Shown piece by piece: positions 3,108-47,576 of a DNA stretch of 64,000 bases (position 1 is the stretch's first letter; every line of letters begins with the position of its first letter). The notes beneath the pieces are model-generated. The model worked only from the letters and a program-made list of their open reading frames with translations. It had not been told where the DNA came from and did not search any database. The stretch is from Patescibacteria group bacterium UBA4787 (GTDB lineage: Bacteria > Patescibacteriota > Patescibacteriia > UBA2591 > UBA4787), in assembly GCA_002402995.1 (NCBI GenBank), contig DHGX01000001.1, positions 85,625-149,624 on the forward strand. The letters run 5' to 3'. A program made the position numbers and the translations under genes.

Positions 3108-3493
3108 ATCCATTAAGCAAATATGACTCGCTGTAATTTGCTTAATATCGCGTAAGTTAAGCAAATCGTCCCGTCCCAAGCTCGCAATTTTGGGCAACGC
3201 GCCGGGTCAGATTCTCAATCGGTATCCAACTACCCCGGGGACAAAGCTCGCCTCCGGGGCAAACAGGTGGCAAATTCGAATCAATCCTCTTTGTATTCGG
3301 CCAGCAGTTGATTCATTTGGGAGAGAACGACGGTCAGATGCTTGTATTCATCCGCCCAATCAAACGTTCGGAAATCGTTGAGCAGGGCGAGCTCACAAGA
3401 GAGTCAACTTTGGCTGGTTTTTATTCGTGATTATTTTCAGATTCGCATTGCTCTAGCTGGCGAATATTTATAAAGATGCTAAACTGAATATAT

Positions 3494-4072: not shown

Positions 4073-4686
4073 TCGCCAGCAAATATCTTAAAGCACCTCA
4101 CTTGATTAAAGCGTTTAAAAAAATTAAACGCGAAGATTTCGTTTTACCTGGAGCGAAAGAAGAAGCAGGGCTAAACGTTCCTTTAAATATAGGATTCGGC
4201 CAAACAATTTCTCAACCCTTAACCGTGGCCTTTATGTTAGAACTATTAGAACCAAGAAAAACCGAAAAAGTCTTAGATATTGGTTCGGGATCGGGTTGGG
4301 TGTCGGCTTTATTGACAGAGATAGTCGGCGAAAGTGGCAGAGTCTACGCCATTGAACGAATCGAGGAATTAAAAAGTTTCGGTGAACAAAATACGGAAAA
4401 ATATAGATTTGTTTCCGACGGGCGGTTGAAATTTTTTGTAGGCGATGGCGCAAAAGGACTGCCGGAATACGCGCCTTTTGACGTGATTCACGTGGCTGCT
4501 AGCGCTGCGACAATTCCGTCAGCCTTATTGGATCAACTGGCAATTGGCGGGCGCTTGATCATACCTGAGGGTGTGGACACCCAAGAATTAGTTTTAATTG
4601 AACGTAAAAGCGAAAATGAATATACTCAGCGCCGTTTTAGTGGTTTTGTCTTCGTACCCCTAATCTCCAAAACAATAAATAGATAG
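4048..4686 (+). CDS. pcm: Protein-L-isoaspartate O-methyltransferase
   Basis: GFGQTISQP, VLDIGSGSGW, APFDVIHVAA, FVFVPL. Confidence 0.93.
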   Translation: MADLVEQLIASKYLKAPHLIKAFKKIKREDFVLPGAKEEAGLNVPLNIGFGQTISQPLTVAFMLELLEPRKTEKVLDIGSGSGWVSALLTEIVGESGRVYAIERIEELKSFGEQNTEKYRFVSDGRLKFFVGDGAKGLPEYAPFDVIHVAASAATIPSALLDQLAIGGRLIIPEGVDTQELVLIERKSENEYTQRRFSGFVFVPLISKTINR

Positions 4687-4719
4687 GTTCGTAAAATTAA
4701 ATTATAAATTTTTAAAATT

Positions 4720-5118
4720 ATGGCCGAACCAAAATTAAGCCCTAAATGGTTAAGGCTTGTTATTTTCTGGATAGGTATTATCGCGACTGTAACATATAGG
4801 GCGATTATTATTTTTAATCATTATAAAATTTATTTTTGGTCGGATGTTCTATGGTATGTCGGCACCATAGGTTTCGTGATTTATTTCTGGCATCGCTCCC
4901 AAATTTCTGAACGCCGCATCAAAGTTATTCAAGAACAAAATCTGGGAGAAAAAATCAGACAGTCGTCCCTCGATTCCGAAACTAAAGAATCGGTTAATTA
5001 TGTGATTGGGGGCTTGTCTTCTTCTATGGAAAAATGGAATTATACCGCAATTTTTATTACTTCTGGACTAGCCTTGTTTTTTATGGTCGCTTTGAATTTA
5101 TTCAAATTAAGTAAATAG
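4720..5118 (+). CDS. Hypothetical membrane protein (3 TM)
   Basis: 132-aa ORF with three hydrophobic segments, co-oriented with neighbours. Confidence 0.65.
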   Translation: MAEPKLSPKWLRLVIFWIGIIATVTYRAIIIFNHYKIYFWSDVLWYVGTIGFVIYFWHRSQISERRIKVIQEQNLGEKIRQSSLDSETKESVNYVIGGLSSSMEKWNYTAIFITSGLALFFMVALNLFKLSK

Positions 5119-5252: not shown

Positions 5253-5819
5253 ATGCCACTTAATATTGATACAATTCCCGGGGGTAAGGAATTAATTGAT
5301 GCTCAAAAAACTCTCGAGACCGCTGGTATTATTGAAGGTATGCGCGTAGGAGATTTAGGCTGTGGCGCTCGCGGACTTTTTGCTCTACAAACAGCCAAAT
5401 TGGTTGGTCGCAAAGGATTGGTTTATGCTATAGATATTTTAAAAAATATTTTACATGGCATTGAAATAAACGCCAAAGAATATGGACTGAGTAACATCAA
5501 AACCGTTTGGTCGGATTTAGAAATTTATGGCGCTACAAAAATTCAGGAAAATTCTTTGGATATGTGTTTGTTGATCAATGTGCTTTTTCAAACCAAAGAC
5601 GATAAAACCGTAATTAGAGAGGCGGCGCGATTATTAAAAAACGGCGGCCGATTGTTGGTGGTTGATTGGGAAAAAACCGGCGCTCCTTTTGGTCCGAAAG
5701 TTGAAGAGAGGGTTAATGTTGATGCTCTGAAGAAATTCGCGCAAGAAATTGATATGATATTGGAAAAAGAATTTGAGCCAGGGCCTTATCACTTTGCGAC
5801 AGTTTTTATTAAAAAATAG
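5253..5819 (+). CDS. Class I SAM-dependent methyltransferase
   Basis: VGDLGCGARG, YAIDI, LLKNGGRLLVVDW, GPYHF. Confidence 0.85.
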   Translation: MPLNIDTIPGGKELIDAQKTLETAGIIEGMRVGDLGCGARGLFALQTAKLVGRKGLVYAIDILKNILHGIEINAKEYGLSNIKTVWSDLEIYGATKIQENSLDMCLLINVLFQTKDDKTVIREAARLLKNGGRLLVVDWEKTGAPFGPKVEERVNVDALKKFAQEIDMILEKEFEPGPYHFATVFIKK

Positions 5820-5876
5820 AAGGTGTTAAACCTTTTGTTGTTGCGTTCGCTCGCTTAATAATAAATTATTCATATA

Positions 5877-6236
5877 ATGGGACTAACCCAAGAAATCGGC
5901 CGTCGTGGGGAAAACGAGGCGGTTGATTTTTTAAAAAAGAAAAAATATAAAATAATTGGACGCAACTTCCGCACGTCTAAATTTGGCGAAATTGATATTA
6001 TTGCCGAAAACAATAACCAGCTGATTTTCGTGGAAGTTAAAGCGAAAACAAATTATAACTTCGGGGCCCCAGAAGAAGAATTCACGCGATATAAAAAGAA
6101 AAAAATGCGACGCGCTATTCAAGATTATTTTTGGGCCAAAAAGTTAGAAACCGAAAATTGGCGTATTGATTTGGTTGCCGTCGATTTTCTACGAGATAGA
6201 ACGGAAATTCGCCAACATACTATTTATCAAGATTAA
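5877..6236 (+). CDS. YraN/UPF0102 family PD-(D/E)xK protein
   Basis: GRRGENEA, RNFR, GEIDIIA, FVEVK, RIDLVAV. Confidence 0.9.
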   Translation: MGLTQEIGRRGENEAVDFLKKKKYKIIGRNFRTSKFGEIDIIAENNNQLIFVEVKAKTNYNFGAPEEEFTRYKKKKMRRAIQDYFWAKKLETENWRIDLVAVDFLRDRTEIRQHTIYQD

Positions 6237-6257: not shown

Positions 6258-6362
6258 TTGACAAAAAGCCTTAATTTTAAGTAAAATTAGATTGTCTTCT
6301 ATTTTAAGACAGAATAAAAATAAAATAGTTCTTTAAATAAAAAATCAAAATGGGAAAGGAGG
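6258..6362 (+). promoter_or_regulatory. Sigma70-type promoter, boxA-like motif and SD upstream of arc
   Basis: TTGACA 6258-6263, 18-bp spacer, TAAAAT 6282-6287; GTTCTTTAAA 6328-6337; AGGAGG 6357-6362. Confidence 0.65.
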
Positions 6363-6369
6363 GTGTAAA

Positions 6370-8094
6370 ATGCCCGAAACCTTGAAACAGCGTCTGCAGA
6401 AGTGGATTCGCGACGAGGGTAGTTCAATCGATAAACTGGTCGAGTTTATTCAGCAGGAAATCAACGCGGTTATCCAGGAAAAGATCAAGCAGGTCGGAGC
6501 TTTAGTCGAGAAACTAAAGAATAGCGAAAATGCGCGACTCGATTTATTTGAGAAGTTCCAGGAACTAGTGAAGCGCTACAAGAATCTGAAAGAGCCGCCT
6601 TCAAGCTATGGCCGTGTTTTAGACAAACAGAGCGAACACGATCGTCTATTAAATCAAGACACTAAAACCGTAACCATTATCACTGCCGAAGGACGGATTA
6701 TGAAGGTTTTAGCCGAATCCGATGAGCTGTATAACAGGTTAAAATTCGGCGACAGCGTAGTAATAAACGCTAACGGCAACATTACGGCCTGCGGCTCGTT
6801 CCTCGGTAATGGTAGAACTGCGACCATCGAAATTGTCCTTGATGCGCGCCGGGCCCTGATCAATACGGGTACGGATCACAAAGAGGAGGTTTATTTGGTC
6901 CCTGGTTTCGCCAGTTTGAAATCTGGTGACGTGGTGGTTTACGATCCGTATTCGCACTTCGTTCTGGAGAAGATTCCGAAGGACGCCAATTTGAGCGAAC
7001 TGGAGCTGGAAAAGGTTCCGAACATTTCTTTGGACGACATCGGCGGTTTGCCGGAACAGAAAAGCACTATTGCTTTTAATATCTTGTCGCCGTTGGTTTA
7101 TCCCGAGATTTTCCAGAAACAGAAGCTCGAAATGTCCAAGGGCGCGATTTTGATCGGCCCTCCGGGCTGCGGCAAGACCATGATGGCCAAAGCGATCGCT
7201 CACGAACTGACGATGCATATGCGGGAAAAGCTCAAGAACCCAACGGCTATGGGCTGCTTCCTTTATGTGCGCGGTCCGGAACTTTCCGCCTGGTTGGTCG
7301 GTATGACCGAGTACAAGCTGCGCGAATTGTTCAAGAAAGCGGTGGAGAAAGCCAAGGAAACTGGTATTCCAACCGTCATTTACATTGACGAGGTGGAATC
7401 TTTTTTGAGGACGCGTGGAACAGGGATCTCTTCTGATGTGAAGGACGATTACGTGACCCAATTTAACTCTTTGGTTGACGGCCTTGACGAGACCGGCGGT
7501 CTGGTGTTTGTGCTGGCAGCCTCTAATCGTCCGGACATGATCGACCCGGCTGTGATGCGCGAAGGCCGACTTGACCTGAAGGTGATGGTCAGCCGTCCGA
7601 CACGCACAGAGCATGCCGAGGACATCCTGCGCAAGTATTTGACTTCGGATCTTTATTTCGACAAGTGTCACGAGAATGACGATAAGACGGTCTTGGTCAA
7701 CGAGTGGATCAAGAAAATCGCCAACTTCATTTTCGCGGACACGGAAGAGACGGAGTTCATGCGAGTGGACTATGTTGACGGCACAAACGAGGTTCTGTAT
7801 TTCCGGCATTTCGTTTCCGGCGCATTACTGAAAGCAATCGTCGATGAGGCGAAGCGCAAAGCTATCCGGCGGGAAATGGAAAAGCGCGGTGACTGTGGCT
7901 TAACGATAGACGACTTCTTGTCGGCTACAACGGAAAAGTTCTGCCAGAATAAACATCTGATTGACAAAGATGCTCTGCGGCAGGAATTCATTCTGCGGCC
8001 GGGCAAGACCGTTGAGAAGGTCATCAGCCTCGTGGAAACCAAGGAGGTGGAGAAGGAGCGCGGTGGTCTGAATGTTGACAGTGATGCTGTGTAA
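6370..8094 (+). CDS. arc: Proteasome-associated AAA ATPase (ARC/Mpa)
   Basis: N-terminal coiled coil, EPPSSYG, OB region, LELEKVPNISLDDIGGL, Walker A GPPGCGKT, VRGPEL pore loop, Walker B IYIDEVE, SRH ASNRPDMIDPAVMREGRLD, EVLYFRHFVSGA. Confidence 0.92.
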   Translation: MPETLKQRLQKWIRDEGSSIDKLVEFIQQEINAVIQEKIKQVGALVEKLKNSENARLDLFEKFQELVKRYKNLKEPPSSYGRVLDKQSEHDRLLNQDTKTVTIITAEGRIMKVLAESDELYNRLKFGDSVVINANGNITACGSFLGNGRTATIEIVLDARRALINTGTDHKEEVYLVPGFASLKSGDVVVYDPYSHFVLEKIPKDANLSELELEKVPNISLDDIGGLPEQKSTIAFNILSPLVYPEIFQKQKLEMSKGAILIGPPGCGKTMMAKAIAHELTMHMREKLKNPTAMGCFLYVRGPELSAWLVGMTEYKLRELFKKAVEKAKETGIPTVIYIDEVESFLRTRGTGISSDVKDDYVTQFNSLVDGLDETGGLVFVLAASNRPDMIDPAVMREGRLDLKVMVSRPTRTEHAEDILRKYLTSDLYFDKCHENDDKTVLVNEWIKKIANFIFADTEETEFMRVDYVDGTNEVLYFRHFVSGALLKAIVDEAKRKAIRREMEKRGDCGLTIDDFLSATTEKFCQNKHLIDKDALRQEFILRPGKTVEKVISLVETKEVEKERGGLNVDSDAV

Positions 8095-8102
8095 ATCAAT
8101 CC

Positions 8103-8133
8103 AGAGGGGAGCTCAAGCTTCCCTCTTTTATTT
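8103..8133 (+). terminator. Intrinsic terminator after arc
   Basis: AGAGGG.GAGC-TCAA-GCTT.CCCTCT followed by a T-rich tail. Confidence 0.65.
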
Positions 8134-8216
8134 ATTTAATTAATTTTTTATTGACCAATGCACCTCGGCTTATTTTATCAAAAATAACGACTGTTGATAA
8201 AAACTTCTAAATGGGG

Positions 8217-8291
8217 TTGACAAATTGGGTTTTTTACAACTATAATTAAGTATTAAAAAATTAAATATCGTTCTTTAAAAAGAAAGGGGGT
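8217..8291 (+). promoter_or_regulatory. Consensus sigma70 promoter and boxA-like motif upstream of dop
   Basis: TTGACA 8217-8222, 18-bp spacer, TATAAT 8241-8246; GTTCTTTAAAA 8270-8280; G-rich SD. Confidence 0.75.
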
Positions 8292-8297
8292 AACTCA

Positions 8298-9869
8298 ATG
8301 AGAATCCCAAAAGTTTTTGGCATAGAAACCGAATGGTCTGTTCGTGTTCGAACGCGCAATAGCGTCAGGTTAGCTAACGCCAAAGAATTCGGCGTATTAA
8401 TAAAATTTATACGCGAATTTTTTACTTTGACCAACACCAGACAAGATTCCCAATGGGAGGCTTGTTCGGTTGATGCTGACCGCGAGTTAGAGCAAGAAAT
8501 AGATCTGCGGCATATCGAGAGTGTTGGTTATCTACCGAACGGCGCTCGTTTATATGTCGACTGGCCGCATTTGGAATATTCAACGCCCGAATGTCAGACG
8601 ATTCGTGATTTAATCGCCGCTGACCAAGCTGGCAATTGGCTGCTTAATATGGCCGCCAAAAAAGCCAGTCAACTCTTGAAAAGAGAGATTATAATTATCA
8701 AAGATAATTCCGATCGCAAAGGCGTTTCTTATGCCAGCCACGAGAATTATTCTTTGCAGCCCAGAACATTTAAGGCCATGATCGACCGACAGAACAGCGA
8801 AGCTCGCGATTTGATTTTGCCGTTTTTGGTAACGCGTCAAATTTTGGCCGGAGCCGGCAAAGTTGGTTCCGAAGCTAATAATTTGAGATCTGCAGATTAC
8901 GGCGAAACAAATTTTCAGATTTCGCAACGCGCAGATTTTATCAATGAAATTATCGGTATCGCCACTACGTCGCCGCGCAATCTGATCAACAGGCGCGATG
9001 AACCACATGCTGATTCTGATCTCTGCCGGCGATTGCATGTTATTATTGGTGATGCCAATTTCTGCGATTGGTCTTATTTTTTGCGCGTTGGAACCTACGC
9101 TCTGGTTTTGCGCATGCTGGAAGATTGCTTTATCGGCAATTCGCCAGTTTGTGTCGACAACCACTGGCTCGAAGCGCTTTATCAGACCTCGCGAGATTTG
9201 ACATGCAAGAAGAAGTTGCAGATTGGCACGGCTAGTCAATCACAGATGAATCCGATCGAGATTCAGCGTTGGTATCTTGGCTTAGTCAAGGAATATCTTG
9301 CCGAGTTTAAAGGCAGCGCCGAAGATCATGAGGTTTGTGAAAAATGGGAATATGTTTTAAACGCTCTGGACAACGACCCGAACCAATTGTTCGGCGTCTT
9401 GGACTGGGTAACAAAGAAATGTATTCTTGATCAATATCTTCAACACCAAGGCTTGCTTTGGCAGGATTCTCGGCTCCGTGTAATCGACATAGCTTACCAC
9501 AATATTAGCGATGAGGCTGGTCTTTATTATCAATTTTTAAAAAAAGGGAAAATCCAGAAATTGATTAATAACGAGTTGTTAATGGATAGGGTTCATAATC
9601 CTCCCGTTGACACACGCGCCTATTTGCGCGGAAAGATCGCTCGGCTTTATCCTGAGTTTGTGGAAGATTGGGAGATAATTTCCAATCGCATGCCAAGTAG
9701 ATTTCGTAAGGAACAGTTGGATTCGTTAAGGGTTATCCTAGAAGAAAAACACATTATTACTTTGGGTAACCCGGTTTTAACGCGAGAAGAGAGCGAAGAA
9801 ATTTTCAAACAAATTATTAATCTTTTGAAATCATGGAAAGGAGGAAGCGAAGATGTTAACACGACTTGA
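8298..9869 (+). CDS. dop: Pup deamidase/depupylase Dop-like (PafA/Dop family)
   Basis: FGIETEW, Trp-containing Dop-loop-like insert, NGARLYVDWPHLEYSTPEC, KDNSDRKGVSYASHENY (Dop type), ISQRADF, RDEPHAD, RRLHVIIGDAN, PPVDTRAYLRG. Confidence 0.85.
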   Translation: MRIPKVFGIETEWSVRVRTRNSVRLANAKEFGVLIKFIREFFTLTNTRQDSQWEACSVDADRELEQEIDLRHIESVGYLPNGARLYVDWPHLEYSTPECQTIRDLIAADQAGNWLLNMAAKKASQLLKREIIIIKDNSDRKGVSYASHENYSLQPRTFKAMIDRQNSEARDLILPFLVTRQILAGAGKVGSEANNLRSADYGETNFQISQRADFINEIIGIATTSPRNLINRRDEPHADSDLCRRLHVIIGDANFCDWSYFLRVGTYALVLRMLEDCFIGNSPVCVDNHWLEALYQTSRDLTCKKKLQIGTASQSQMNPIEIQRWYLGLVKEYLAEFKGSAEDHEVCEKWEYVLNALDNDPNQLFGVLDWVTKKCILDQYLQHQGLLWQDSRLRVIDIAYHNISDEAGLYYQFLKKGKIQKLINNELLMDRVHNPPVDTRAYLRGKIARLYPEFVEDWEIISNRMPSRFRKEQLDSLRVILEEKHIITLGNPVLTREESEEIFKQIINLLKSWKGGSEDVNTT

Positions 9870-10602
9870 GTTGACTTGGCGATTAATGGATGAGCTAATC
9901 GCTCAATTCCTGAAATTGCCGAGCGCGATAGGACAGAGCGACTTTAAACTGGAAGAGTATTTACAGCAATCCCATCTTCACGGTACCACCGTCCTCGCTC
10001 TGAAATATCAGGGTGGAGTGCTGTTAGGTGGAGACGGTCGGGCTTCCGGCATGGATTTCCGTATTTTTACGGACAAAACTCCGAAGGTTTATCCGGTTTC
10101 CGAGTCGACTGCTTACGGTCTTTCTGGGGACGCTCATCTGGGTATTGAGGTGGGAAAGATCTTGGCTTTGACGCTTAAGAATTACGAGAAGAAAGAGTTT
10201 CGAGCCATGAGTTTTGTCGCTCAAACCAAGATGTTGGCTAAAATGATCGAGCGTTTACTGCCAATGGCTATGCAGGGCCGTATCGTGATGCCGATTTTCG
10301 TGTCATGTCAGGAAATCTGCACGATTTATCCGAATGGCATGGTGGTAAGGGGAGATGAAGGTTATGGTGGAATTGGTTCGGGTAGTCCTCACGCCATTCA
10401 TCGCATCAAGGCTCGTTTGGCTGATAACCCCAATCCAGATAAAACCAGGGCGATAGAAATTATACTCGAAGCTTTTGCGGAAGCTCATAAGAGTGATGCC
10501 GCAACCGGCTCTAATTTGCTGATTTATAGTCTGGAAGAGTCGGGAATCGCTATCGTTCGCAACGATGTCGGAAACGGACCGTTTTCGATGAACCTGTTGT
10601 AA
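9853..10602 (+). CDS. prcB: 20S proteasome beta subunit with propeptide
   Basis: Autocleavage site HG|TTVLAL, GDGRAS (Asp17), Lys33 in TPKVY, GIGSGS, SDAATG. Confidence 0.9.
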   Translation: MLTRLELTWRLMDELIAQFLKLPSAIGQSDFKLEEYLQQSHLHGTTVLALKYQGGVLLGGDGRASGMDFRIFTDKTPKVYPVSESTAYGLSGDAHLGIEVGKILALTLKNYEKKEFRAMSFVAQTKMLAKMIERLLPMAMQGRIVMPIFVSCQEICTIYPNGMVVRGDEGYGGIGSGSPHAIHRIKARLADNPNPDKTRAIEIILEAFAEAHKSDAATGSNLLIYSLEESGIAIVRNDVGNGPFSMNLL

Positions 10603-10617
10603 TCGTGAGGTGAAATA

Positions 10618-11322
10618 ATGGCTGATAAATTGGATCTCATTGCCAACGACAAAGATAATGCCTTGCCGGTTATCGCAGTCAGCACCAAAGACGGCATACT
10701 TCTTGTCGCAATTAATTTTTCCATTAGTCCGGAGGATTCCGATACCTACATCCACAAACTTTCAGAGATCCATGACAATATCGGCATGGGCGCTTGTGGC
10801 AATAGCAGCGAGTATGATCCGCTGCGCAGGCAGTTTATCGACGTCGTTGATAGGCTTGCCTACGAGTTGTCCAAGGACGATATTGTCTTGAAGAGTCTGG
10901 CCAATAGTTTGGCCGGAGAGTTGCGCGATGTATATCGCAATCCCCGTCTGGTTCCTCGTGTGGTCTTCTTCGTCTTGGTGGAATGTCAGGAAGATTCGAA
11001 GCGGGATCGTTTCGTCCGGATCGGTCTCGACGGCAAGTTCAAGATCTTTAATAATTTCACGGTGATCGGCGGCAACGACAAAGAGGTTGGCGCTCTAATG
11101 GATAACCTCAGGTCCGTCGAATTTTTGGAGATGGACTGGCCGACCGCTTTAACCGCGATCAAGGAAGCGATAAAGAAAACCAACATCGCCCGGATCGCTG
11201 GCGCAAAGAAATCGGACAAGACCGTCGAACCGTTCCCATCCCTGGAGCTGGCAATTCTCTGGCGTGGAAGAACTGGCAGAAAATGGCAGCTTTTGCCGCA
11301 TCAAATTAAGGAGGTGAAATAA
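10618..11322 (+). CDS. prcA: 20S proteasome alpha subunit, divergent with short N-terminus
   Basis: VIAVSTKDGILLVA, HKLSEIHDNIGMGACG..SEYDPLR, LELAILWR; directly after prcB. Confidence 0.82.
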   Translation: MADKLDLIANDKDNALPVIAVSTKDGILLVAINFSISPEDSDTYIHKLSEIHDNIGMGACGNSSEYDPLRRQFIDVVDRLAYELSKDDIVLKSLANSLAGELRDVYRNPRLVPRVVFFVLVECQEDSKRDRFVRIGLDGKFKIFNNFTVIGGNDKEVGALMDNLRSVEFLEMDWPTALTAIKEAIKKTNIARIAGAKKSDKTVEPFPSLELAILWRGRTGRKWQLLPHQIKEVK

Positions 11323-11323
11323 A

Positions 11324-11527
11324 ATGCTTAAAAAGCAGTTTCTATTCTTAACCCCAGACGAGCAAGAAAAAAAGGAGACTGAAAAACATCCTCTGGGGCC
11401 CAAGCCCGGCGGACCTGGCTCCGGTAAGAAGGCAGACAAAAATGATGATAACATCGATGACATCCTTGATGACATCATCGAACGGAATAAGCGGGTTAAT
11501 GAAACTGACGAGCGAGAGGGTCAGTAA
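11324..11527 (+). CDS. Prokaryotic ubiquitin-like modifier (Pup/UBact-like), 67 aa, C-terminus REGQ
   Basis: Strong SD AAGGAGGTG; small, acidic, disorder-prone; IDDILDDI helix; terminal G-Q; lies between prcA and pafA. Confidence 0.85.
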   Translation: MLKKQFLFLTPDEQEKKETEKHPLGPKPGGPGSGKKADKNDDNIDDILDDIIERNKRVNETDEREGQ

Positions 11528-11532
11528 TATTT

Positions 11533-11568
11533 AATCCCCGCACTTTAAAATAGTGCGGGGATTTTTTT
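11533..11568 (+). terminator. Intrinsic terminator after dop-prcB-prcA-modifier
   Basis: AATCCCCGCACT-loop-AGTGCGGGGATT followed by a T run. Confidence 0.85.
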
Positions 11569-11672
11569 ATAATCGCAATGAGCGAGGCAGCAGAAATTTT
11601 ATTTTTAGATTGCCGGACAGGTCAGATTATATATTGAAGAGAGGCATAGTTCTCCTCTTCTTCTATTTTAAT

Positions 11673-11747
11673 TTGACAAATCATCAAAAAAAGATAAGAT
11701 TTATATAAGAAAAATAATAATGTTGTTCCTTAAAATTATTCAAGGAG
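11673..11747 (+). promoter_or_regulatory. Promoter, boxA-like motif and SD upstream of pafA copy 1
   Basis: TTGACA 11673-11678, TAAGAT 11695-11700 (16-bp spacer), GTTCCTTAAAA 11725-11735, AAGGAG 11742-11747. Confidence 0.6.
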
Positions 11748-11755
11748 AGAATAAA

Positions 11756-13285
11756 ATGAAGAAGAGAATTATTGGGATAGAGAATGAATATCGGATTCAG
11801 GCTCTGCCCGGATTCGATAAAAGCAGATACAAGGTTTATTTTCGGGGATTGAAAATAAGCTTGAATCAGTTTCTATCCAACGGAGCGAGGTTTTATTTGG
11901 ATTTTCCGAGCGAACTGCCGGAGTATTGCACGCCGGAAGTTACGACCATCCGTGAAGTTCTGGCGCATGAACGCGCCGGAGATTATATTGTCTGGGAGAG
12001 CCTGAAAGACATGATGGAAATTTTTAGGCGGAATACCAGTCAGCCAGGTCTCTTTTACAAATATCTGGCAAGTGGTTGTCATGAGAACTATCTTTTTTAT
12101 CTTGATGAAGCTATCAAGTCAACTGCGAATATCTACCCGCAGATGAGCGGCCACATCTTGGCAAGATTGGTGGCTTTTTTGGGGCCCTTCTTGGTCTCTC
12201 GACAGATTTTTTGCGGCGCTGGTTGGTGGTTAACAAATGAAGATGGGCGAAGTTATTTTAATATTTCGCAGCGCGCCCATTTTATGAAGCGTGATTACGG
12301 CGGAGACACGATGCAGAATAGGGCGATTATCAATTCTCGGAATGAATCATTGTGTTCGTCGAGCAATTATTCTCGTCTTCATCTCATTGTTGGCGACTCC
12401 AATATGAGCGATCTCTCTGGTTTTCTCAAGCTCGGCACCACGTCTATCGTTTTAAGGATGATCGAAGCAGGCTTCTTTGATCCACAAGACATTGTTCTAG
12501 TTGATCCGGTTGCGGCTATCGCTGTCATTTCCGATGATTTGAGCTGTAAGGCGACTGTCCAGGCCGGCGGTTTGCATCGTTCGCTTTCAGCCATTGACAT
12601 CCAAGAGTGGTATCTTAATAAAGCTCGTGAATTTTTTGAATGTCGAGAAGTATCCGAAGAGGAGAAGGAGGTTATAAAATATTGGCAGGAAGTTTTGGAC
12701 AAACTGCGCCGAGACCCCATGCTTCTCAAAGAGGAGATCGACTGGGTGATCAAATATAATTTGATTTGCCGTTATGCTGAAAAACACGGTGTTGATCTCG
12801 ATCATTGTTCGGACGAGGAGAGTGAAGCGCTGAGAGTCATTGACACTCATTATCATTCTCTAAATCCGGAGAGAGGTTTGTACCACAAGCTTCTCGGCGC
12901 TGGGAAGATCGCCAAGCTTATTAGTGATAAAGAGGTGGCTTTGGCAATAAAATCTCCACCGACTGATACGCGAGCCAAAGTCCGTGGTGACTTCATTTCT
13001 TTCATCCTGAAAAATCATGCGGATTTGGTTAGGTATTTCATCGTCAATTGGGACGCTATTCGTTATAATTATCGTGCTAATGGATTTTCTAGGCTGATCC
13101 ACGAATTTCAACCTAATCAAGACGATGAATCGGTGAAAGCCTGTGTTTTCAATCTCGGCGATCCGTTTCTTTCAACAGAAACTTGCAACAACTTCCAAGT
13201 ATTGGTTGAAGAGATTGAGTCTCACCAAGAATTTTTCAAATCTATGATACCAACTCCGTCTCCTGACCATCGCGATTATGAATAG
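11756..13285 (+). CDS. pafA: Pup--protein ligase PafA-like, copy 1 (start moved to the SD-preceded ATG at 11756)
   Basis: KRIIGIENEY, FLSNGARFYLD, GCHENY, FLVSRQIFCGAG, ISQRA, RLHLIVGDSNMS, LKLGTT, EIDWVIK, PPTDTRAKVRG; no Dop loop. Confidence 0.85.
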   Translation: MKKRIIGIENEYRIQALPGFDKSRYKVYFRGLKISLNQFLSNGARFYLDFPSELPEYCTPEVTTIREVLAHERAGDYIVWESLKDMMEIFRRNTSQPGLFYKYLASGCHENYLFYLDEAIKSTANIYPQMSGHILARLVAFLGPFLVSRQIFCGAGWWLTNEDGRSYFNISQRAHFMKRDYGGDTMQNRAIINSRNESLCSSSNYSRLHLIVGDSNMSDLSGFLKLGTTSIVLRMIEAGFFDPQDIVLVDPVAAIAVISDDLSCKATVQAGGLHRSLSAIDIQEWYLNKAREFFECREVSEEEKEVIKYWQEVLDKLRRDPMLLKEEIDWVIKYNLICRYAEKHGVDLDHCSDEESEALRVIDTHYHSLNPERGLYHKLLGAGKIAKLISDKEVALAIKSPPTDTRAKVRGDFISFILKNHADLVRYFIVNWDAIRYNYRANGFSRLIHEFQPNQDDESVKACVFNLGDPFLSTETCNNFQVLVEEIESHQEFFKSMIPTPSPDHRDYE

Positions 13286-13325
13286 TCCCGTTCTGGCTGA
13301 TTGAAATCCCCATTTTATTTTTATT

Positions 13326-13353
13326 AACGCTCCTAAATAATTAGGAGCGTTTT
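13326..13353 (+). terminator. Intrinsic terminator after pafA copy 1
   Basis: AACGCTCCTA-AATAAT-TAGGAGCGTT followed by T. Confidence 0.8.
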
Positions 13354-13357
13354 AAAT

Positions 13358-13416
13358 TTGACAAATTATCAAAAAACGCTAAGCTTTAAATAATAAAATT
13401 AAAATCGTTCTTTACA
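13358..13416 (+). promoter_or_regulatory. Promoter and boxA-like motif upstream of pafA copy 2, near-duplicate of the copy 1 promoter
   Basis: TTGACAAATTATCAAAAAACGCTAAGCT versus TTGACAAATCATCAAAAAAAGATAAGAT; GTTCTTTACA 13407-13416. Confidence 0.6.
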
Positions 13417-13430
13417 AAGAAGGGAATAAA

Positions 13431-14900
13431 ATGCAAAAACGCATTTATGGTTTGGAGACTGAGTATAGGTGGTGGAGTTCCTTGCCGGAGAAAAACCCCG
13501 ATAATCCGAGTCAGGTTTTTTCCGGATATCATTTGAATACTATAGTCAATTACTATCCGGGTAATTATTCTGGCTTTTTGCCAAACGGCGCTAGGTTTTA
13601 TGTGGACATGGTTCGGTTTCCAGAGTTCTCAACTCCGGAATGTGCGAGTGTTAGAGATGCCGTGATTTGGGATAAGGCAGGGGAAAAAATAGTTTTCGAT
13701 TGTTTGGGCGGCGCTGTTGTCATCCGAAAAAGAAATTTAGGCAGCAACGGAAAAGTACAGGGTTGCCACGAGAATTATTTGATCGATCGCCAGGTCTTAT
13801 TGAAAGATCGCGACATCTCTCTCGGTCATGTCCATTTGGTCGAACGAGACTTTAATTATTTGGCCGATCGTCTAATTCCTTTTTTGGTGACGCGCCAGGT
13901 TTTCTGCGGCACCGGCGCCATTATGGAGTTCCCACAAATTCAGATAGGGGAAAATCCTTCAACTCAGTGTTTATATCGCTATGTCATTTCACAGCGAGCT
14001 TTCAGAATCGAGCATTTAATCCACGCCGAGACTACTAATAATCGGCCGATCATTAACATGCGCAATGAGCCTCTGTGCGGTGGCGACGAGAGATATTTCC
14101 GCCTGCATCTGATTCTGGGTGATTCTAATCTTTCAGAGTTTTCGACTTTCTTGAAATTGGGTACTACTGGCATAATCTTGCGGATGATTGAGGCTGATTT
14201 TTTAGACACAACCAGTATTGCTCTGCTTGATCCATTAGCAGCTCTTCGGCAAGTCGCGATAGATCCGACTTGCAAAAAAAGGCTAGACTTGGTTGATCAA
14301 CGTCAGTTTTCAGCTATCGACATTCAACAGTGGTATCTCGACAAAGCCAATAAGTTCTTCCAGCGCAACGAAGCTTCAGAAGAGGAAAAAGAAGTGATTG
14401 AGCGTTGGCAAGAAACGTTGGACAAACTGCGCCGAGACCCCATGCTTCTCAAAGAGGAGATCGACTGGGTGATCAAGCTCAACGCTTTGATAAGATATTG
14501 CGAATCTCGCAATTTATCTTTTGACAGCGAAGAAGCAAGGCGTCTTGACGTGGCTTATCATGATCTTGATCCGGATAATTCTCTCTACTTAAAACTTCTT
14601 AAACGTGGTCGCGTCAAGAGGTTAGTTGCCGAGGAAGAGATCGAGAACGCCATTGTTAATCCGCCCGATACGCGCGCCAAAATTAGAGGTTCTGTTATAC
14701 TGGCAATCAACGATTATATTAATCGTTCGTCTATTGGCCGTGATCGCGGCATCTTAATAAACTGGGATTTGGTTTCTGTGTATGCTTCTACGATTCCTCC
14801 TACCACTACTTCTGATAAGATAATAACACTAAGCGATCCTTTCGCGGTGGAAAATTCGGAAATCCAGGCTCTAGTCAACCAATTAAATGCTACACTTTAA
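13431..14900 (+). CDS. pafA: Pup--protein ligase PafA-like, copy 2
   Basis: MQKRIYGLETEY, FLPNGARFYVD, PEFSTPEC, QGCHENY, FLVTRQVFCGTG, TTNNRPIIN, RLHLILGDSN, PPDTRAKIRG. Confidence 0.85.
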   Translation: MQKRIYGLETEYRWWSSLPEKNPDNPSQVFSGYHLNTIVNYYPGNYSGFLPNGARFYVDMVRFPEFSTPECASVRDAVIWDKAGEKIVFDCLGGAVVIRKRNLGSNGKVQGCHENYLIDRQVLLKDRDISLGHVHLVERDFNYLADRLIPFLVTRQVFCGTGAIMEFPQIQIGENPSTQCLYRYVISQRAFRIEHLIHAETTNNRPIINMRNEPLCGGDERYFRLHLILGDSNLSEFSTFLKLGTTGIILRMIEADFLDTTSIALLDPLAALRQVAIDPTCKKRLDLVDQRQFSAIDIQQWYLDKANKFFQRNEASEEEKEVIERWQETLDKLRRDPMLLKEEIDWVIKLNALIRYCESRNLSFDSEEARRLDVAYHDLDPDNSLYLKLLKRGRVKRLVAEEEIENAIVNPPDTRAKIRGSVILAINDYINRSSIGRDRGILINWDLVSVYASTIPPTTTSDKIITLSDPFAVENSEIQALVNQLNATL

Positions 14901-14929
14901 CCCCTACTATAAAACAGTAGGGGTTTTTA
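14899..14929 (+). terminator. Intrinsic terminator ending the proteasome locus
   Basis: AACCCCTACT-loop-AGTAGGGGTT followed by a T run. Confidence 0.8.
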
Positions 14930-15041
14930 TTTTAATTATCCCCACTTACAACTTGATTTTTTCGCCATTTTATATTATAATGTATTTAACGTGACTAATT
15001 AGTGATGATTAGTCATTTTTAATTTTCTAAATTTTTGAGAT

Positions 15042-16415
15042 ATGGAAATGTCAATTATTGAGGCGATTGAGCAAATTTGCTTAGAGAAAAGTCTTTCCAA
15101 AGAAAAAGTTTTAGAAGCAATTGAACAGGCTTTAGCTGCTGCTTATCGCAAAGACTTTGGAGAAAAAAACCAAAATATAAAAGTTGAGTTCAATCCGGTG
15201 AACGGAGCGATGAAAATCTTCGACATAAAAACGGTTGTCGAAGATTCTTTATTGGAAGAATTTCAGAAAGAGATGGAAGAAGGCGAATCTGAAGAAGCGC
15301 CCAGTTCGGAAATTGCATCTGAAGGAGAAAAAGAGAAGAAGCGTTTTAATCCTAGAACAGACATCGCCTTAACTGAAGCGCGCAGAATTAAAAAAAGCAT
15401 GAAACAGGGAGATGAAATAAAAATAGAGCTGTCTTTACCTGAGGATTTCGGACGCGTGGCTGCGCAAACCGCCAAGCAAGTTATTATTCAGAGATTGCGA
15501 GAAGCCGAGCGGCAGAATATTTTTGACACATTTAAAGATCAGGAAGGTAAGGTTCTTAACGGGGTTATCCAGCGTCGAGAAAACAATAATTTATTTGTCG
15601 TTGACTTGAACGGTACGGCAGCGGTTTTGCCTCCGTCTGAACAGGTGCGCGAAGAGAAATATTATCCTGGGCAGAAATTAAGATTTTATATCGCAACGGT
15701 AAATATGACGCCACGCGGTCCGGAGATTATAACATCTCGTCGACACAGCGAAATCGTGAAAGAACTTTTCCGTTTGGAAATACCGGAAATTAACAGTGGC
15801 GTCGTAGAGATAAAAGGCATCGCCCGCGAGGCTGGTTTACGTAGTAAGGTGGCAGTTATTAGCAATGACGAAAATATTGACCCGATTGGTTCTTGTATTG
15901 GGCAAAAAGGCGTTCGCATTCAAACAATTATTAACGAATTAAACGGCGAAAAAATAGATATTATCGAATACTCGGAAGACGCAGCTAAATTTATCGGCAA
16001 TGCTCTATCTCCGGCCAAGGTTACCTCGGTTGTTTTAAATGAACAAGAAAAAAAGACTATTGTTTCTGTTAAAGAAAATCAATTTTCTTTAGCTATCGGT
16101 CGTGATGGCCAGAATGTCCGCTTGGCAGCCCGTTTAACTGGTTGGGCTATTGAAGTTGTTAAAGATGGCGAAACGTTTGGCGAAGGCGTAAGCGCCAATC
16201 AAGAAGGAGAATTACAGGGTGGAGAAACCGGCGAACCGATAACAGAAATTGAAGCTGAACAACTCGGTGAAGAGGAAAAAACCAAAGAAGAATCTGTTCC
16301 GGAATTAGTCGAAGAATTAAAAGAAGAAATGTCTTCAGAAACGATAGGCGGAGAAATAGTGGCCGGCGCTGGCGAAGAGGTTGTTGAAGAAACCCCCGGA
16401 AAATTAGAAGAATAA
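15042..16415 (+). CDS. nusA: Transcription termination/antitermination factor NusA with acidic C-terminal tail
   Basis: FGRVAAQTAKQVIIQRLREAER, IAREAGLRSKVAV, DPIGSCIGQKG, LAIGRDGQNVRLAARLTGW. Confidence 0.97.
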   Translation: MEMSIIEAIEQICLEKSLSKEKVLEAIEQALAAAYRKDFGEKNQNIKVEFNPVNGAMKIFDIKTVVEDSLLEEFQKEMEEGESEEAPSSEIASEGEKEKKRFNPRTDIALTEARRIKKSMKQGDEIKIELSLPEDFGRVAAQTAKQVIIQRLREAERQNIFDTFKDQEGKVLNGVIQRRENNNLFVVDLNGTAAVLPPSEQVREEKYYPGQKLRFYIATVNMTPRGPEIITSRRHSEIVKELFRLEIPEINSGVVEIKGIAREAGLRSKVAVISNDENIDPIGSCIGQKGVRIQTIINELNGEKIDIIEYSEDAAKFIGNALSPAKVTSVVLNEQEKKTIVSVKENQFSLAIGRDGQNVRLAARLTGWAIEVVKDGETFGEGVSANQEGELQGGETGEPITEIEAEQLGEEEKTKEESVPELVEELKEEMSSETIGGEIVAGAGEEVVEETPGKLEE

Positions 16416-16542
16416 TCGTTTTTTATTTATAGACATATTTAAAAGCCGAAAATAATATCTCGGTTTTTTAATATAATTAGTTGGAATTGATTTTTTTCTC
16501 AAAAATACTAAGATTAGAACAATAATACAATAAAATAAATAT

Positions 16543-17769
16543 ATGCCTCAGGAAAAGAAAATAGAAAAATTTTCCAAAGACAATGAAGCTTTAATTAAGC
16601 TAGAAGTTTTTGATCCCGTCGTAGAATTGCAGAATATCAAAAAATTGTCCAAGGATGAACGACTAAAAGTTTTTCAAGAATACAAAGAAAAACTCATCGA
16701 GCAAAAAGAAAATTTAGCCAAAACGCAAGAAGCGCTTACGGCTTTAGTTCGATTCAATCCGGACAGGCCGCTGGAGGAATTGATAGAAAAAGCGCAACAA
16801 TTGGGCGACAAATTCGGTTTTTCTGAAGAACAAATGGAAACGATTAAATCAAATTTAAGACAATATTCTAAAAGACATAGTTTGGTCAAAGAGTTAAGAC
16901 AAAAATTTCCCAAAGACAACGAATTATTCAAGGCTTTATTTGGCCGTGAACCAAAAGGACGAATTGAAGTAATCGCCGGGCCGATAACTTTATATTTCCG
17001 TTGCCATGACATTAATGATTACGCCTATCTTTATATATATGGCTTTCTTAGAAAAGAAGAACCAACCATTGAACAAATAAATTTAGTTCAAAAAACCGGT
17101 GGTGCTAAATTAACTTTTGTTATCGGGATAAAAGATGAAATTAAGCAGCAACTTGCTTCTACAGATTTAATTGGCATTGAAAATGCTTCGATAAGACACG
17201 AATTTACTGATAAACAGAAAGGAATATTAGCTCACGAAGAGCAACACGCCATAAATTCTTTATTGTTCCCGTCAGAATATAATACTTATTATGTTTATTT
17301 GGATCTATTGGAAGCAAAAACCAAAACAGAGAAAGAGCTGGCGCTTAAAAGATATTTTAGGTTTTTGCGGGAAACCTACGACACTAGAGCCAAAAGCGAG
17401 ATTGTTGCTTATTTTAAAGAGGGCCGTCCCGTGGACCACGTATATGATTCATTAATTCGTCCGATTGAGGACGATGGTTTTTATGACTATTTTCCAAAAA
17501 ATCAACAAAAAGAATTAGTAGAACAAATTTTTAAAGGTTCGGTGGAACAAACCCCGGAGCTGAAACAAATGATCAATGATATGGTCCAAGAAATTTTCGC
17601 GAGAGAATATCACCAGACTATTAAAAGTGGTCTTAATGCTTTTGCGTCTTTACGCGATATGGGATATTCTTTGGAACAAACTATCGCTTTGTTCCAACAA
17701 GAGCCATTAACTAAGTGGCCCAAATTAGCTAAACGATTTATGGATCAATATGGTGGACAAAATAAATAA
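16543..17769 (+). CDS. Hypothetical protein with HEExH motif, paralog of the next gene
   Basis: LAHEEQHAI; shares FDPVxEL, PxGxIE..xGPITL and EPLxKWPK with 17750-18955. Confidence 0.75.
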   Translation: MPQEKKIEKFSKDNEALIKLEVFDPVVELQNIKKLSKDERLKVFQEYKEKLIEQKENLAKTQEALTALVRFNPDRPLEELIEKAQQLGDKFGFSEEQMETIKSNLRQYSKRHSLVKELRQKFPKDNELFKALFGREPKGRIEVIAGPITLYFRCHDINDYAYLYIYGFLRKEEPTIEQINLVQKTGGAKLTFVIGIKDEIKQQLASTDLIGIENASIRHEFTDKQKGILAHEEQHAINSLLFPSEYNTYYVYLDLLEAKTKTEKELALKRYFRFLRETYDTRAKSEIVAYFKEGRPVDHVYDSLIRPIEDDGFYDYFPKNQQKELVEQIFKGSVEQTPELKQMINDMVQEIFAREYHQTIKSGLNAFASLRDMGYSLEQTIALFQQEPLTKWPKLAKRFMDQYGGQNK

Positions 17770-18955
17770 AAATTTCGAGACATCGGGAAAAGAGAAAAAT
17801 GAATCAAAAATCTTTGATCCGGTTTTAGAGTTGGAAAATATTAAACAAATCGAGGATCACGCTGAACGCCATGAGAAAATTAAAGAATACAAAGCAAAAT
17901 TAACGGAGCAAAAAGAGAGAATAGCCACCATGCAAGATTTGTTAATTAATTTTATTCGCCAAAACCCCGATATTCCACTCGACGAATTGTTGCAAAAATT
18001 AGAAAAAATGGGCAAAAATCTTAATTTAGCGGATTGGCAGACTGAGATCGGCAGAAAAATTTTGACTGAATACAATCGCCGTCATAATTTAATCAAAGAA
18101 TTGAAAGGGCAATATCCGGACGAACAAGAATTATTTTATTTTCTATTCGGCTGGAAACCGGAAGGAAAAATTGAATTTGTTGAAGGCCCCATAACCTTAA
18201 GTATTATTTGCCACGGATCTCGTGATTACGATAAGCTTCATTTCACTAACGGCGAATACCAAATAGGAGAAATTGAAATTACGAAGGAAGGATTAAAAGA
18301 AAGCACGAAGTCAGGGGGCTGTCATCTACACGGCTTAAAAGAACCATATAATGACTTAGTAAACATATTGAGGACAGATGTCGATAATTTTGACAACCTT
18401 CTAAATCACGAGGAACGGCATGCTATTTATAGTTTGTTCTCAGAAGTTTTCATAAAAGAAATAAACTGTTTATTCTTTGAGAAAGATTCTTCGCTTGAAG
18501 AAAATTTCGGTATCATAAGGAAATATGTGCGCGAACGCTGTTCTTTAGAAGAGGATGGGGCGGCAGACGAGATATTGGCATTTTTAAATGAGAGCGGGTG
18601 GTTCCCGCCAGAAGAAATTTTTGAATTATTAATTGAACCAGACGGTTTATATAATTTCACTGATTTAAGCAATATAGATCTGGTTAAGGAATGTTATGAT
18701 GAACTTAGAGGGAGTCTTAAATTGCCGCCGTCAGAAGATTTAAAAAGGAAGATTGAGAATATAGTTACAGAAATTTGGGTAAATGATTTTCAGAAACATA
18801 TTCAGGAGGGTATAAGGGCCTTTATGCTTTTAAAAGATTTGAATTTTTCTAACGAAGAAACGATGGCTTTTTTGTCAATCGAACCATTAGCCAAATGGCC
18901 CAAGGCGGTTAATCGTTTAATTGAACAGCGTCAGCTTAAGGGTAAATTAAATTAA
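17750..18955 (+). CDS. Hypothetical protein with HEExH motif, paralog of the previous gene
   Basis: LNHEERHAI, later DEILAF; tandem paralog. Confidence 0.75.
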   Translation: MVDKINKNFETSGKEKNESKIFDPVLELENIKQIEDHAERHEKIKEYKAKLTEQKERIATMQDLLINFIRQNPDIPLDELLQKLEKMGKNLNLADWQTEIGRKILTEYNRRHNLIKELKGQYPDEQELFYFLFGWKPEGKIEFVEGPITLSIICHGSRDYDKLHFTNGEYQIGEIEITKEGLKESTKSGGCHLHGLKEPYNDLVNILRTDVDNFDNLLNHEERHAIYSLFSEVFIKEINCLFFEKDSSLEENFGIIRKYVRERCSLEEDGAADEILAFLNESGWFPPEEIFELLIEPDGLYNFTDLSNIDLVKECYDELRGSLKLPPSEDLKRKIENIVTEIWVNDFQKHIQEGIRAFMLLKDLNFSNEETMAFLSIEPLAKWPKAVNRLIEQRQLKGKLN

Positions 18956-47511: not shown

Positions 47512-47576
47512 TTGACAAATCTCAAAAAAATATTTATATTGAGTATTGTTAATTTATATAGCCAAGTTCTTTAAAA
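47512..47576 (+). promoter_or_regulatory. rRNA promoter and boxA antiterminator
   Basis: TTGACA 47512-47517, 17-bp spacer, TATATT 47535-47540; GTTCTTTAAAA 47566-47576. Confidence 0.75.

Follow-up and report, generated by a model that had tools for sequence, protein, structure and literature searches.

A putative Pup-type tagging and degradation cassette with tandem ligase-like paralogues in a patescibacterial genome

Gene content and organization

The window, by which the whole analysed stretch of 64,000 nucleotides is meant, comes from the 765 kb genome of a member of the Patescibacteria (UBA4787, contig DHGX01000001.1). On its forward strand, in a slot whose host sides are a SAM methyltransferase gene with a yraN-like gene (5253..6236) and nusA (15042..16415), lies a cassette of seven uninterrupted ORFs (7/7 in an ORF check of the window) in the order arc-dop-prcB-prcA-tag-ligase-ligase. 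The first unit opens with a leader (6258..6365) that contains a sigma70-like promoter (6258-6287), the boxA-like motif GTTCTTTA (6328-6335) and an SD, and encodes an ARC/Mpa-type AAA+ ATPase of 574 residues (arc, 6370..8094), behind which an intrinsic-terminator-like hairpin is found (8103..8126). The leader of the second unit (8217..8297), with a promoter matching 12/12 consensus positions, a boxA-like motif (8270-8277) and an SD, precedes the genes for a Dop-like deamidase/depupylase of 523 residues (dop, 8298..9869), the 20S beta subunit (prcB, 9853..10602), the 20S alpha subunit of 234 residues (prcA, 10618..11322) and a putative Pup-like tag of 67 residues (11324..11527), and this unit is likewise closed by a terminator-like hairpin (11533..11563). 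The third leader (11673..11755; promoter 11673-11700, boxA-like GTTCCTTA at 11725-11732, SD) leads into ligase-like paralogue 1 (509 residues, 11756..13285), whose start was taken at the SD-led position 11756, the ORF finder's start at 11720 being without an SD. The adjoining segment (13326..13430) combines a terminator (13326-13351) with the leader of unit 4 (TTGACA at 13358, boxA-like motif at 13407-13414, SD); ligase-like paralogue 2 (489 residues, 13431..14900) follows, and a last intrinsic-terminator-like hairpin (14899..14925) marks the end of the cassette.

Pfam matches comprise AAA, three times Pup_ligase and twice Proteasome, with the proteasomal OB domain in arc scoring below the cut-off. 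The best NCBIfam matches are ARC, Dop/PafA and 20S models, none of the six enzymes reaching an equivalog cut-off (0/6; TIGR03686/88/89/90/91; for example, 366.7 vs 504.75 for ARC and 107 vs 191.9 for PrcB), and since all scores fall under these cut-offs the enzymes are regarded as strongly diverged, as a preliminary description of this DNA had supposed and as the HMM search that it proposed bears out. The complete, rearranged Pup-type gene set that it had described also holds, as the seven intact ORFs encode six functions together, with homologues of ARC, Dop, a PafA-type enzyme, PrcB and PrcA co-located as in a Pup-proteasome system (PPS), and the modifier gene lies 3′ of prcA, not 5′ of prcB. 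Against close relatives, dN/dS ranges from 0.04 to 0.27 across the cassette genes (tag, 0.06-0.27; ligases, 0.04-0.16), which indicates purifying selection on all of them; positive selection on whole ligase genes is ruled out by values of at most 0.16.

Expression signals, base composition and assembly

The division into four promoter- and terminator-bounded units stands as far as the four strong terminators (8103, 11533, 13326 and 14899) and the TTGACA promoters at 6258, 8217 and 11673 are concerned, which score 11, 12 and 10 of 12, but in the fourth promoter the TTGACA at 13358 is combined with a weak -10, and the scan did not list it. The leader of unit 4 matches that of the relatives' middle ligase. 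For each of the seven cassette genes the pairing energy with the host anti-SD lies between -5.6 and -14.0 kcal/mol, while values of -5 or lower occur in 8.5% of 620 genome ORFs, a baseline that is low because the genome starts are uncurated first ATGs. For the boxA-SD architecture, the Markov control is a weak one because random sequence seldom contains ORFs of 100 codons.

With a gene GC of 43-50%, the cassette occupies the 88th-98th percentile of 582 ORFs, so that the block is indeed GC-rich and SD-led (7/7), but these traits do not support a recent acquisition: in the host genome, GC is higher in the SD-led genes generally, the GC excess is absent in the relatives G014 and G450, and the cassette occupies the same site in three families at host-congruent distances.

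In two read runs that are possibly the source of the assembly, one contig spans the host flank into the cassette at flat depth (5000-12724). The same runs cover 14477-16500 by a 37-base scrap only, and the junction of the second ligase with nusA is present in relatives. Both ligase genes share a 59-bp tract (12695..12753, identical to 14418-14476), situated within a segment homogenised among the paralogues (residues ~280-335); its depth in these runs is twice that of the contig, hence two copies, and a third ligase collapsed in the assembly is thereby ruled out.

ATPase and 20S core

In ARC, the Walker A (263) and Walker B (338) motifs and the arginine-finger region are intact, and the pore loop reads WLVG. 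The C-terminus is SDAV, lacking the GQYL with its penultimate Tyr in which the Nonomuraea control ends. Across the order the tails are SDAV/SEAV, SGII or PTVI, all without the penultimate Tyr and all still finishing in two small or aliphatic residues. The GQYL of ARC/Mpa mediates docking to the proteasome, and for the mycobacterial complex, stability in vitro required an engineered open gate (PMC8755798).

PrcB carries an HG|T site after a propeptide of 44 residues, and T1, D17 and K34 are present; the site, Thr1 and Asp17 are as first described, but the catalytic Lys is residue 34 and not 33, owing to a one-residue insertion. PrcA matches Rhodococcus and mycobacterial PrcA structures and keeps the aligned pocket Lys (K47), which is found in 5/5 alpha subunits of the order. 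Its N-terminus is 11-12 residues shorter than that of actinobacterial PrcA, and a longer start is barred by an in-frame TGA at 10606. The short form is a feature of the window's genus, the alpha N-termini of G014 and G450 being near full length.

The putative tag

The 67-residue modifier described earlier is borne out as an ORF (11324-11527) with a P/G-rich middle, an acidic segment and the C-terminus REGQ. An ORF of 54-67 residues ending in G[Q/E] lies directly after prcA in 6/6 sets assembled at this region (the window, G001, L058, G014 and two in G450), and one of the G450 tags ends in EGGE. None of five tags of the order (0/5) matches the Pup model PF05639 at E ≤ 10, for which the Nonomuraea Pup control gives 106 bits. 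The UBact model PF20513 has no match at the tag in G000, G001, G014 or G450, its only weak match in these four genomes lying elsewhere in G000, and none of them exceeds the cut-off (0/4); the designation "UBact-type" finds no support in this model. Among 177,635 PDB sequences, the top match of the tag profile is Pup, over the acidic segment, with an E of 0.41 that alone is not significant, and hhalign of the tag against actinobacterial Pup returns a probability of 6% and an E of 0.006. As a query, the single tag matched only itself, and an Atlas search gave no usable match. The 67-residue protein is likely the tag.

Dop and the ligase-like paralogues

Dop (8298-9869) has an insertion of Dop-loop length that contains the aligned Trp, matches actinobacterial references at 19/19 scored conserved positions and groups with canonical Dop (IQ-TREE, SH-aLRT 99); its alpha-loop is mixed, with two Dop-type and two PafA-type residues. 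The Dop loop, which is absent from PafA (PMC7947786, PMC8599861), is missing from both ligase-like paralogues, in which catalytic residues are largely kept (16/19 scored positions in paralogue 1, among them E9, E11, R45, D49, E56, H109, T185, R189, R195, R207, H209 and W432; 17/19 in paralogue 2). The His of the PafA/Dop HPEY motif is replaced in both copies; at the scored positions two His are replaced in both, and in paralogue 1 the second Thr as well. Where PafA has F47/F54, both carry the PafA-type Phe, and of the PafA-specific alpha-loop residues (positions 25-33 of Table 1 in PMC7947786) each has 0/9, with 2/9 of the Dop type. Against solved structures in the PDB, both score higher with Dop than with PafA. 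An AlphaFold model of paralogue 2 (pLDDT 88.9) contains no long helix across the alpha-loop, the alignment there being mixed between Dop and PafA.

In an IQ-TREE analysis of 52 hand-picked rows, one side of the tree holds the order's Dops and canonical Dop and the other side its ligases and canonical PafA (SH-aLRT 99); a FastTree run on 164 rows shows this split too, with a support of about 0.8. In both trees the ligases fall on the PafA side but not within the canonical PafA clade. The alternative in which the order's ligases and Dops form one clade together is not rejected by the AU test (p = 0.135).

The paralogues occur in tandem, 2-3 per set, and are ~45-58% identical. Between those of the window, 12/14 alpha-loop residues differ, vs 55% elsewhere (uncorrected p 0.018), an excess that is not significant in one of three paralogue pairs; in comparisons of orthologues, paralogue 1 alone shows it at p < 0.05 (6/14; paralogue 2, 4/14; middle copy, 2/14). 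The alpha-loop and the beta3/4 loop are named as substrate contacts in passages of a preprint (bioRxiv 10.64898/2026.04.10.717840), and the passages on PafA/Dop in the literature consulted name no tag-binding groove residues at the homogenised tract (~280-335). Of the claim of two pafA-like ligases, then, the two intact Pup_ligase paralogues without a Dop loop are confirmed; judged by sequence, both are likely ligases.

Distribution and history

The cassette, with this gene order and between the SAM-methyltransferase gene and nusA, is present in 4/55 genomes of the order, belonging to three families, and in 2/401 genomes of a sample of the class, both of the window's genus, in agreement with the lineage-restricted system envisaged earlier. 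In one relative the slot is empty, and in another it holds PrkA-DUF444-SpoVR plus LonC. The number of ligase-like copies is two in the window, three in G001 and L058 and at least two in G014, and one of the G450 sets has a single such gene between the tag and nusA. The order's cassette Dops form one clade, as do its cassette ligases, and because cassette distances track those of the host NusA, methyltransferase and trigger factor, the acquisition appears to be old and mostly lost and not a recent island. We infer a single old entry into the ancestor of the order at the methyltransferase-nusA slot, followed by loss in most lineages, and a lineage-specific amplification of the ligases through the shared leader repeats. 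A role as replacement for a missing ClpP is ruled out, ClpP being present in 5/5 genomes tested; Lon_C matches in these five are only weak.

Interpretation

The intact cassette probably constitutes a tag-and-degrade system of the Pup type, with the 67-residue protein as its likely tag and the two paralogues without a Dop loop as its likely ligases, each with a target range of its own. Dop would deamidate the C-terminal Gln of the tag to Glu and also strip tags from targets, and each ligase, using ATP, would link this Glu to target lysines, the differing alpha-loops and beta3/4 loops shifting the target preference of each. The acidic segment of the tag would then bind the N-terminal coiled coil of ARC, which would thread the target and may dock on the 20S core by its non-GQYL hydrophobic tail, the gate being predicted to be largely open from the shortened alpha N-terminus. 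A more far-reaching proposal, in which single-ligase pupylation has turned into a multi-ligase system by separately promoted tandem paralogues acting with one tag, recombination at boxA-SD leaders and a possible Dop origin, combined with a GQYL-less ATPase and an open-gated proteasome, is put forward tentatively and may well prove wrong in this full form.

Two alternatives concern what the components do. The extra copies may not all be ligases but loop-less descendants of the local Dop, at least one of them acting as a depupylase/deamidase or tag-transferase, so that one ligase (or a re-invented one) would stand beside several editors. The better PDB scores to Dop, the alpha-loop with G/E residues of the Dop type and none of the PafA type, its Dop-like secondary structure in the predicted model of paralogue 2, the AU result and the finding that loop deletion together with an alpha-loop change makes Dop a ligase (PMC7947786) are all consistent with it; yet the best trees and the gene order put the extra copies on the side and in the position of PafA, and the system requires at least one ligase, for which the G450 set with a single gene offers just one candidate, so we regard this reading as unlikely. 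Tagging may also be uncoupled from proteolysis, the tag driving unfolding or remodelling by ARC while a gate-less 20S degrades unfolded proteins without an ATPase. Such a division would fit the missing penultimate Tyr, the truncated PrcA N-terminus in the window's genus, the placement of arc in a transcription unit of its own (from predicted signals) and the proteasome-less pupylation of about half of actinobacteria (PMC6466877), but the conserved pocket Lys, the small or aliphatic tail residues, the near full-length alpha N-termini of G014 and G450 and the unit that prcB, prcA and the tag share with dop make it quite unlikely.

Very unlikely is an anti-phage or host-directed weapon with ligases diversifying in an arms race, to which patchy presence, changing ligase copy number, variable substrate loops and strong stand-alone expression signals might point; against it, the ligase dN/dS stays low, the slot is fixed between housekeeping genes with another protease/AAA set as its alternative cargo, and 50,697 phage records are without a Pup-ligase match except for one unannotated record. 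The GC percentile and the rarity in the order would suit an island without maintained function, either recently acquired or in decay, or a chimera of the assembly, but purifying selection, the site shared by three families, host-congruent distances, the absence of a GC excess in G014 and G450 and the left junction on one contig at flat depth render this extremely improbable; a recent horizontal island in particular is rejected, being largely refuted by the selection, the shared site and the distances.

Comparison with known systems and implications

With the PPS of Actinobacteria and Nitrospirota, the cassette shares all six components, the arc-dop front, the prcB-prcA order and the final position of the ligase, as well as the catalytic residues of Dop/PafA, ARC and PrcB and a small acidic tag ending in G[Q/E]; the ARC, Dop, PrcB, PrcA and PafA of Nonomuraea gerenzanensis are 32-41% identical to their counterparts. 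In contrast to the canonical PPS, where pup is 5′ of prcB, the tag gene is 3′ of prcA in all six sets, the window tag ends in EGQ instead of GG[Q/E] and misses PF05639, the ligases are 2-3 deeply diverged paralogues whereas the two PafA copies of Nonomuraea are near-identical, ARC lacks GQYL, PrcA has a short N-terminus, all enzymes stay under their NCBIfam cut-offs, and the clade of the cassette falls outside canonical PafA and Dop. The canonical gene order is called rigidly conserved in passages of PMC3511204.

As for the UBact system, compared here by its Pfam model PF20513, the likeness is that, outside Actinobacteria, a small protein resembling Pup occurs together with homologues of ARC, Dop, PafA and 20S, and the difference in the lack of a match of the cassette tags in the four genomes scanned. 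UBact has a single Gly before the terminal Q/E, as does the window tag. For the system, PMC5751360 cites Lehmann et al. 2017 (doi 10.1016/j.bbrc.2017.01.037). No work on pupylation or a UBact proteasome in Patescibacteria, Parcubacteria or CPR was found by a literature search that covered chiefly the main text of freely accessible papers, and no Patescibacteria or CPR term occurs in the excerpts of the pupylation-related matches listed.

In Actinobacteria, the group in which pupylation is studied, PafA is described as the only ligase acting on hundreds of targets, and the literature asks how it selects them; paralogues with one tag but different substrate-contact loops would make this question directly testable. 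If the proposal is true, they would correspond in function to E3 ligases that divide specificity among themselves, here within a symbiont genome of 765 kb, and ligase cassettes would be gained and lost by recombination between rRNA-type boxA-SD leaders. The combination of Dop-type with PafA-type features in the paralogues puts the published hydrolase-vs-ligase rules to the test, and a naturally gate-truncated 20S with a GQYL-less ATPase tests how docking works. The locus also shows that so small a genome maintains, under selection, about 8.7 kb of genes for a proteolysis that is costly in ATP. Current Pup and UBact models miss the tags of such cassettes. Among metagenome contigs, a degenerate ARC-motif scan gave ten loci, two of them ARC loci (L054, L058) and eight unrelated, and among genome contigs a PrcB scan gave 291 pattern matches with one confirmed locus.

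Gene content of the cassette

The proteasome cassette of UBA4787 (window 6258..14929) is real, and it differs from the known Pup-proteasome systems as a variant of that kind, most likely working as such a system would. As the preliminary description had held, the gene set is intact and divided into four expression units (arc; dop-prcB-prcA-tag; paralogue 1; paralogue 2): all seven ORFs are genuine and uninterrupted, and the units are bounded by TTGACA leaders and terminator-like hairpins, four of each; the fourth leader has a weak -10 box. Paralogue 1, the first of two loop-less ligase-like genes, starts at 11756, the site of its SD. The genome itself (G000) comprises 765,527 bases in four contigs and is 99% complete. 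In contigs of two runs, a possible source of the assembly, the left flank and the block lie on one contig at flat depth, and a 59-bp repeat common to both paralogues has twice the depth of the block.

The family assignments made earlier were borne out by profile searches, in which Pfam and NCBIfam recover ARC, two 20S subunits and three members of the Pup_ligase family, every one falling short of its NCBIfam equivalog cut-off; the 67-aa ORF has no match in either database. Measured against a strictly defined Pup-proteasome system, the cassette departs in the tag model, the gene order, the GQYL terminus, the PafA alpha-loop and all cut-offs. Some Parcubacteria are reportedly among the carriers listed in the UBact paper. 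Duplication of parts of the system has precedents in actinobacteria and Leptospirillum (PMC3511204), and the accessible text of PMC7947786 notes scattered homologues in further phyla, with no mention of CPR. A literature search, thin on subscription journals, found no publication on such loci in Patescibacteria.

Putative tag, ATPase and core particle

The 67-aa ORF is regarded as a putative tag by its position, its ending and its conservation. Its middle is P/G-rich, it contains an acidic segment, and it ends in REGQ. The Pup and UBact models miss it (the Pup of the actinobacterial control, Nonomuraea gerenzanensis, scores 106 bits), and a profile built from six tags ranks Pup first of 177,635 PDB sequences at a non-significant E value of 0.41. 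ARC has intact Walker motifs and ends in SDAV, and its relatives end in SEAV, SGII or PTVI; the Nonomuraea ARC ends in GQYL. The aligned pocket Lys of PrcA, which we take to have a docking role, is kept in five of five alpha subunits. The PrcA N-terminus is 11-12 residues shorter than in actinobacterial PrcA, exceeding the seven residues cut in the open-gate variant described in PMC8755798; longer N-termini are kept in G014 and G450, two related genomes of the order.

Dop and ligase-like proteins

The gene at 8298 has an insertion of Dop-loop length with an aligned Trp, and keeps 19 of 19 scored residues (the Dop loop is described in PMC7947786 and PMC8599861). This loop is missing from paralogues 1 and 2, in which 16 and 17 of the 19 positions, respectively, are conserved, among them the catalytic Asp, D49 and D59, and the Arg equivalents of PafA R201/R207. 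Each has none of the nine PafA alpha-loop residues and two of the Dop type (compared with Table 1 of PMC7947786), and for both the better match among solved structures is Dop, ahead of PafA. An AlphaFold prediction for paralogue 2 (pLDDT 88.9, from a 56-row mixed alignment) gives a four-residue helix, a strand and a loop in the alpha-loop region and no long helix, and a joint clade of the ligase-like proteins with the local Dops is unrejected (p-AU 0.135). All four points count against a plain PafA label.

Substrate is contacted by the alpha-loop and the beta3/4 loop, according to a preprint (bioRxiv 10.64898/2026.04.10.717840). Within the alpha-loop, 12 of 14 residues differ between the two window paralogues vs 55% elsewhere (p 0.018), and 6 of 14 among paralogue-1 orthologues vs 19% elsewhere (p 0.033); the excess is not significant in the other orthologue pairs nor in one paralogue pair, all p-values being uncorrected.

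Selection and turnover of ligase-like copies

Nei-Gojobori dN/dS between the window and G001, a relative in the order, and the metagenome loci L058 and L054 is 0.06-0.09 for arc, 0.11 for dop, 0.07-0.11 for prcB, 0.13-0.15 for prcA, 0.06-0.27 for the tag and 0.04-0.16 for the ligase-like genes, compared with 0.04-0.08 for nusA. The ligase-like paralogues are mutually 45-58% identical, and aa ~280-335 reach 87-100% DNA identity in G001 and L058. Exact tracts common to paralogues measure 59 bp in the window and reach 140 bp in L058, and the near-identical segment would be consistent with gene conversion among paralogues. Three ligase-like genes are present in both G001 and L058, and at least two in G014, in pieces on three contigs. 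The window paralogue 2 leader matches that of the relatives' middle ligase up to the common boxA-SD stretch and then continues into paralogue 2, a switch which suggests that the middle gene was lost from the window by a crossover in that repeat. The L058 ligase leaders contain small insertions of about 40 and 80 bases (2884-3119 and 4602-4815). Downstream of nusA lie two tandem ~400-aa paralogues (window 16543-18955) with no significant Pfam match, which evolve more rapidly than the genes around them (60-75% identity to G001, dN/dS ~0.2).

Expression signals

All seven cassette genes pair with the host anti-SD, unlike most host genes, as had been claimed; the SD-led style is, though, the mark of a wider gene class in the genome, since boxA-like/SD leaders also occur at other genes, and it is not peculiar to the cassette. 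The 16S rRNA 3' tail reads GGATCACCTCTTT (window 49180-49193), which departs from the usual anti-SD by one base. Pairing with this tail at <= -5 kcal/mol occurs in only 8.5% of 620 ORFs. The motif GTTC(T/C)TTA, which we take to be boxA-like, is found in all four unit leaders and in the rRNA leader (window ~47566). A TTGAC-gap-motif pattern, defined post hoc and judged against a weak null, occurs 64 times in the genome vs 22-44 times in five Markov genomes, and 20 occurrences are followed by an SD and an ORF of 100 aa or longer. NusB is present, and a domain search of the genome did not find the Rho RNA-binding domain.

About 20 genes combine a TTGAC promoter, a boxA-like motif resembling that of the rRNA leader, an SD and higher GC (window 47512-47573, 28935-29651, 49578-50108; L064-L078). 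Nine of 17 scanned box/SD-led proteins have no Pfam match; one is an extra ClpP paralogue.

Distribution and history

With G000 counted and partly incomplete genomes among the samples, PF03136 is matched in 3 of 41 relatives and, within the order, in 4 of 55 genomes (G000, G001, G014 and G450, from three families); the class and phylum samples, with 401 genomes each, have 2 and 8 matching genomes. The seven other phylum-sample matches are weaker, and none of these genomes has a PF00227 match. These seven, among the 400 Patescibacteria genomes other than G000, are long-branched Pup_ligase-family genes that stand alone, without proteasome matches (L035-L040, L019-L021), and the six loci inspected are lone genes. 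In another Patescibacteria genome (G340), without a Pup_ligase match, a very divergent gene resembling proteasome beta precedes one that may be alpha-like (L079:561-2175).

As far as assembled, the carriers of the order and L058 have the order arc-dop-prcB-prcA-tag-ligase(s), with an ORF of 54-67 aa ending in G[Q/E] 3' of prcA in six of six sets. G450 has two dop-prcB-prcA-tag-ligase sets, on separate contigs that may or may not be neighbours. Both are complete and mutually 36-51% identical (L033:4913-10730 and L034:6240-10816), one tag being acidic (KQGE) and the other basic (EGGE), and the second beta subunit has TV after Gly in place of TT.

The G000 cassette lies between a SAM-methyltransferase gene (plus yraN) and nusA; the nusA side is visible in G001 and L058, and in G014 and G450 the methyltransferase is joined to one contig end and nusA to another. 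In G003, of the same family as G000, methyltransferase, yraN and nusA are adjacent and the slot is empty; in G449, of the genus of G450, it is filled by PrkA, DUF444, SpoVR and, in convergent orientation, a LonC-like gene, with a TTGACA/SD leader (L049:2685-10130), which gives this site a second AAA/protease cargo. Host and cassette proteins alike place G014 and G450 nearer to one another than to the window: the two share 68% identity in NusA, 48% in ARC and 52% in Dop, and the window shares with these two 59/56%, 40/38% and 48/45%, respectively. FastTree (164 rows, after removal of three near-duplicates and of database rows shorter than 400 aa) groups the Dops of the order in one clade and its ligase-like proteins in a second, and IQ-TREE agrees, with supports of 100 and 99 (LG+G4, quick search, 52 hand-picked rows). 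For tree labels, 96 of 150 representatives were scanned with NCBIfam, the Dop cut-off being passed by seven and the PafA cut-off by six. The GC richness attributed to the block is real in the window cassette but absent from those of G014 and G450. From these sequence comparisons, we infer one old acquisition followed by many losses; a possible alternative is repeated transfer into one hotspot within the order.

Extra ClpP paralogues are present in G000 (C2:193936-194577), G001, G014 (C10) and G449 (C21, C63), and ClpP is single in G003, the empty-slot genome.
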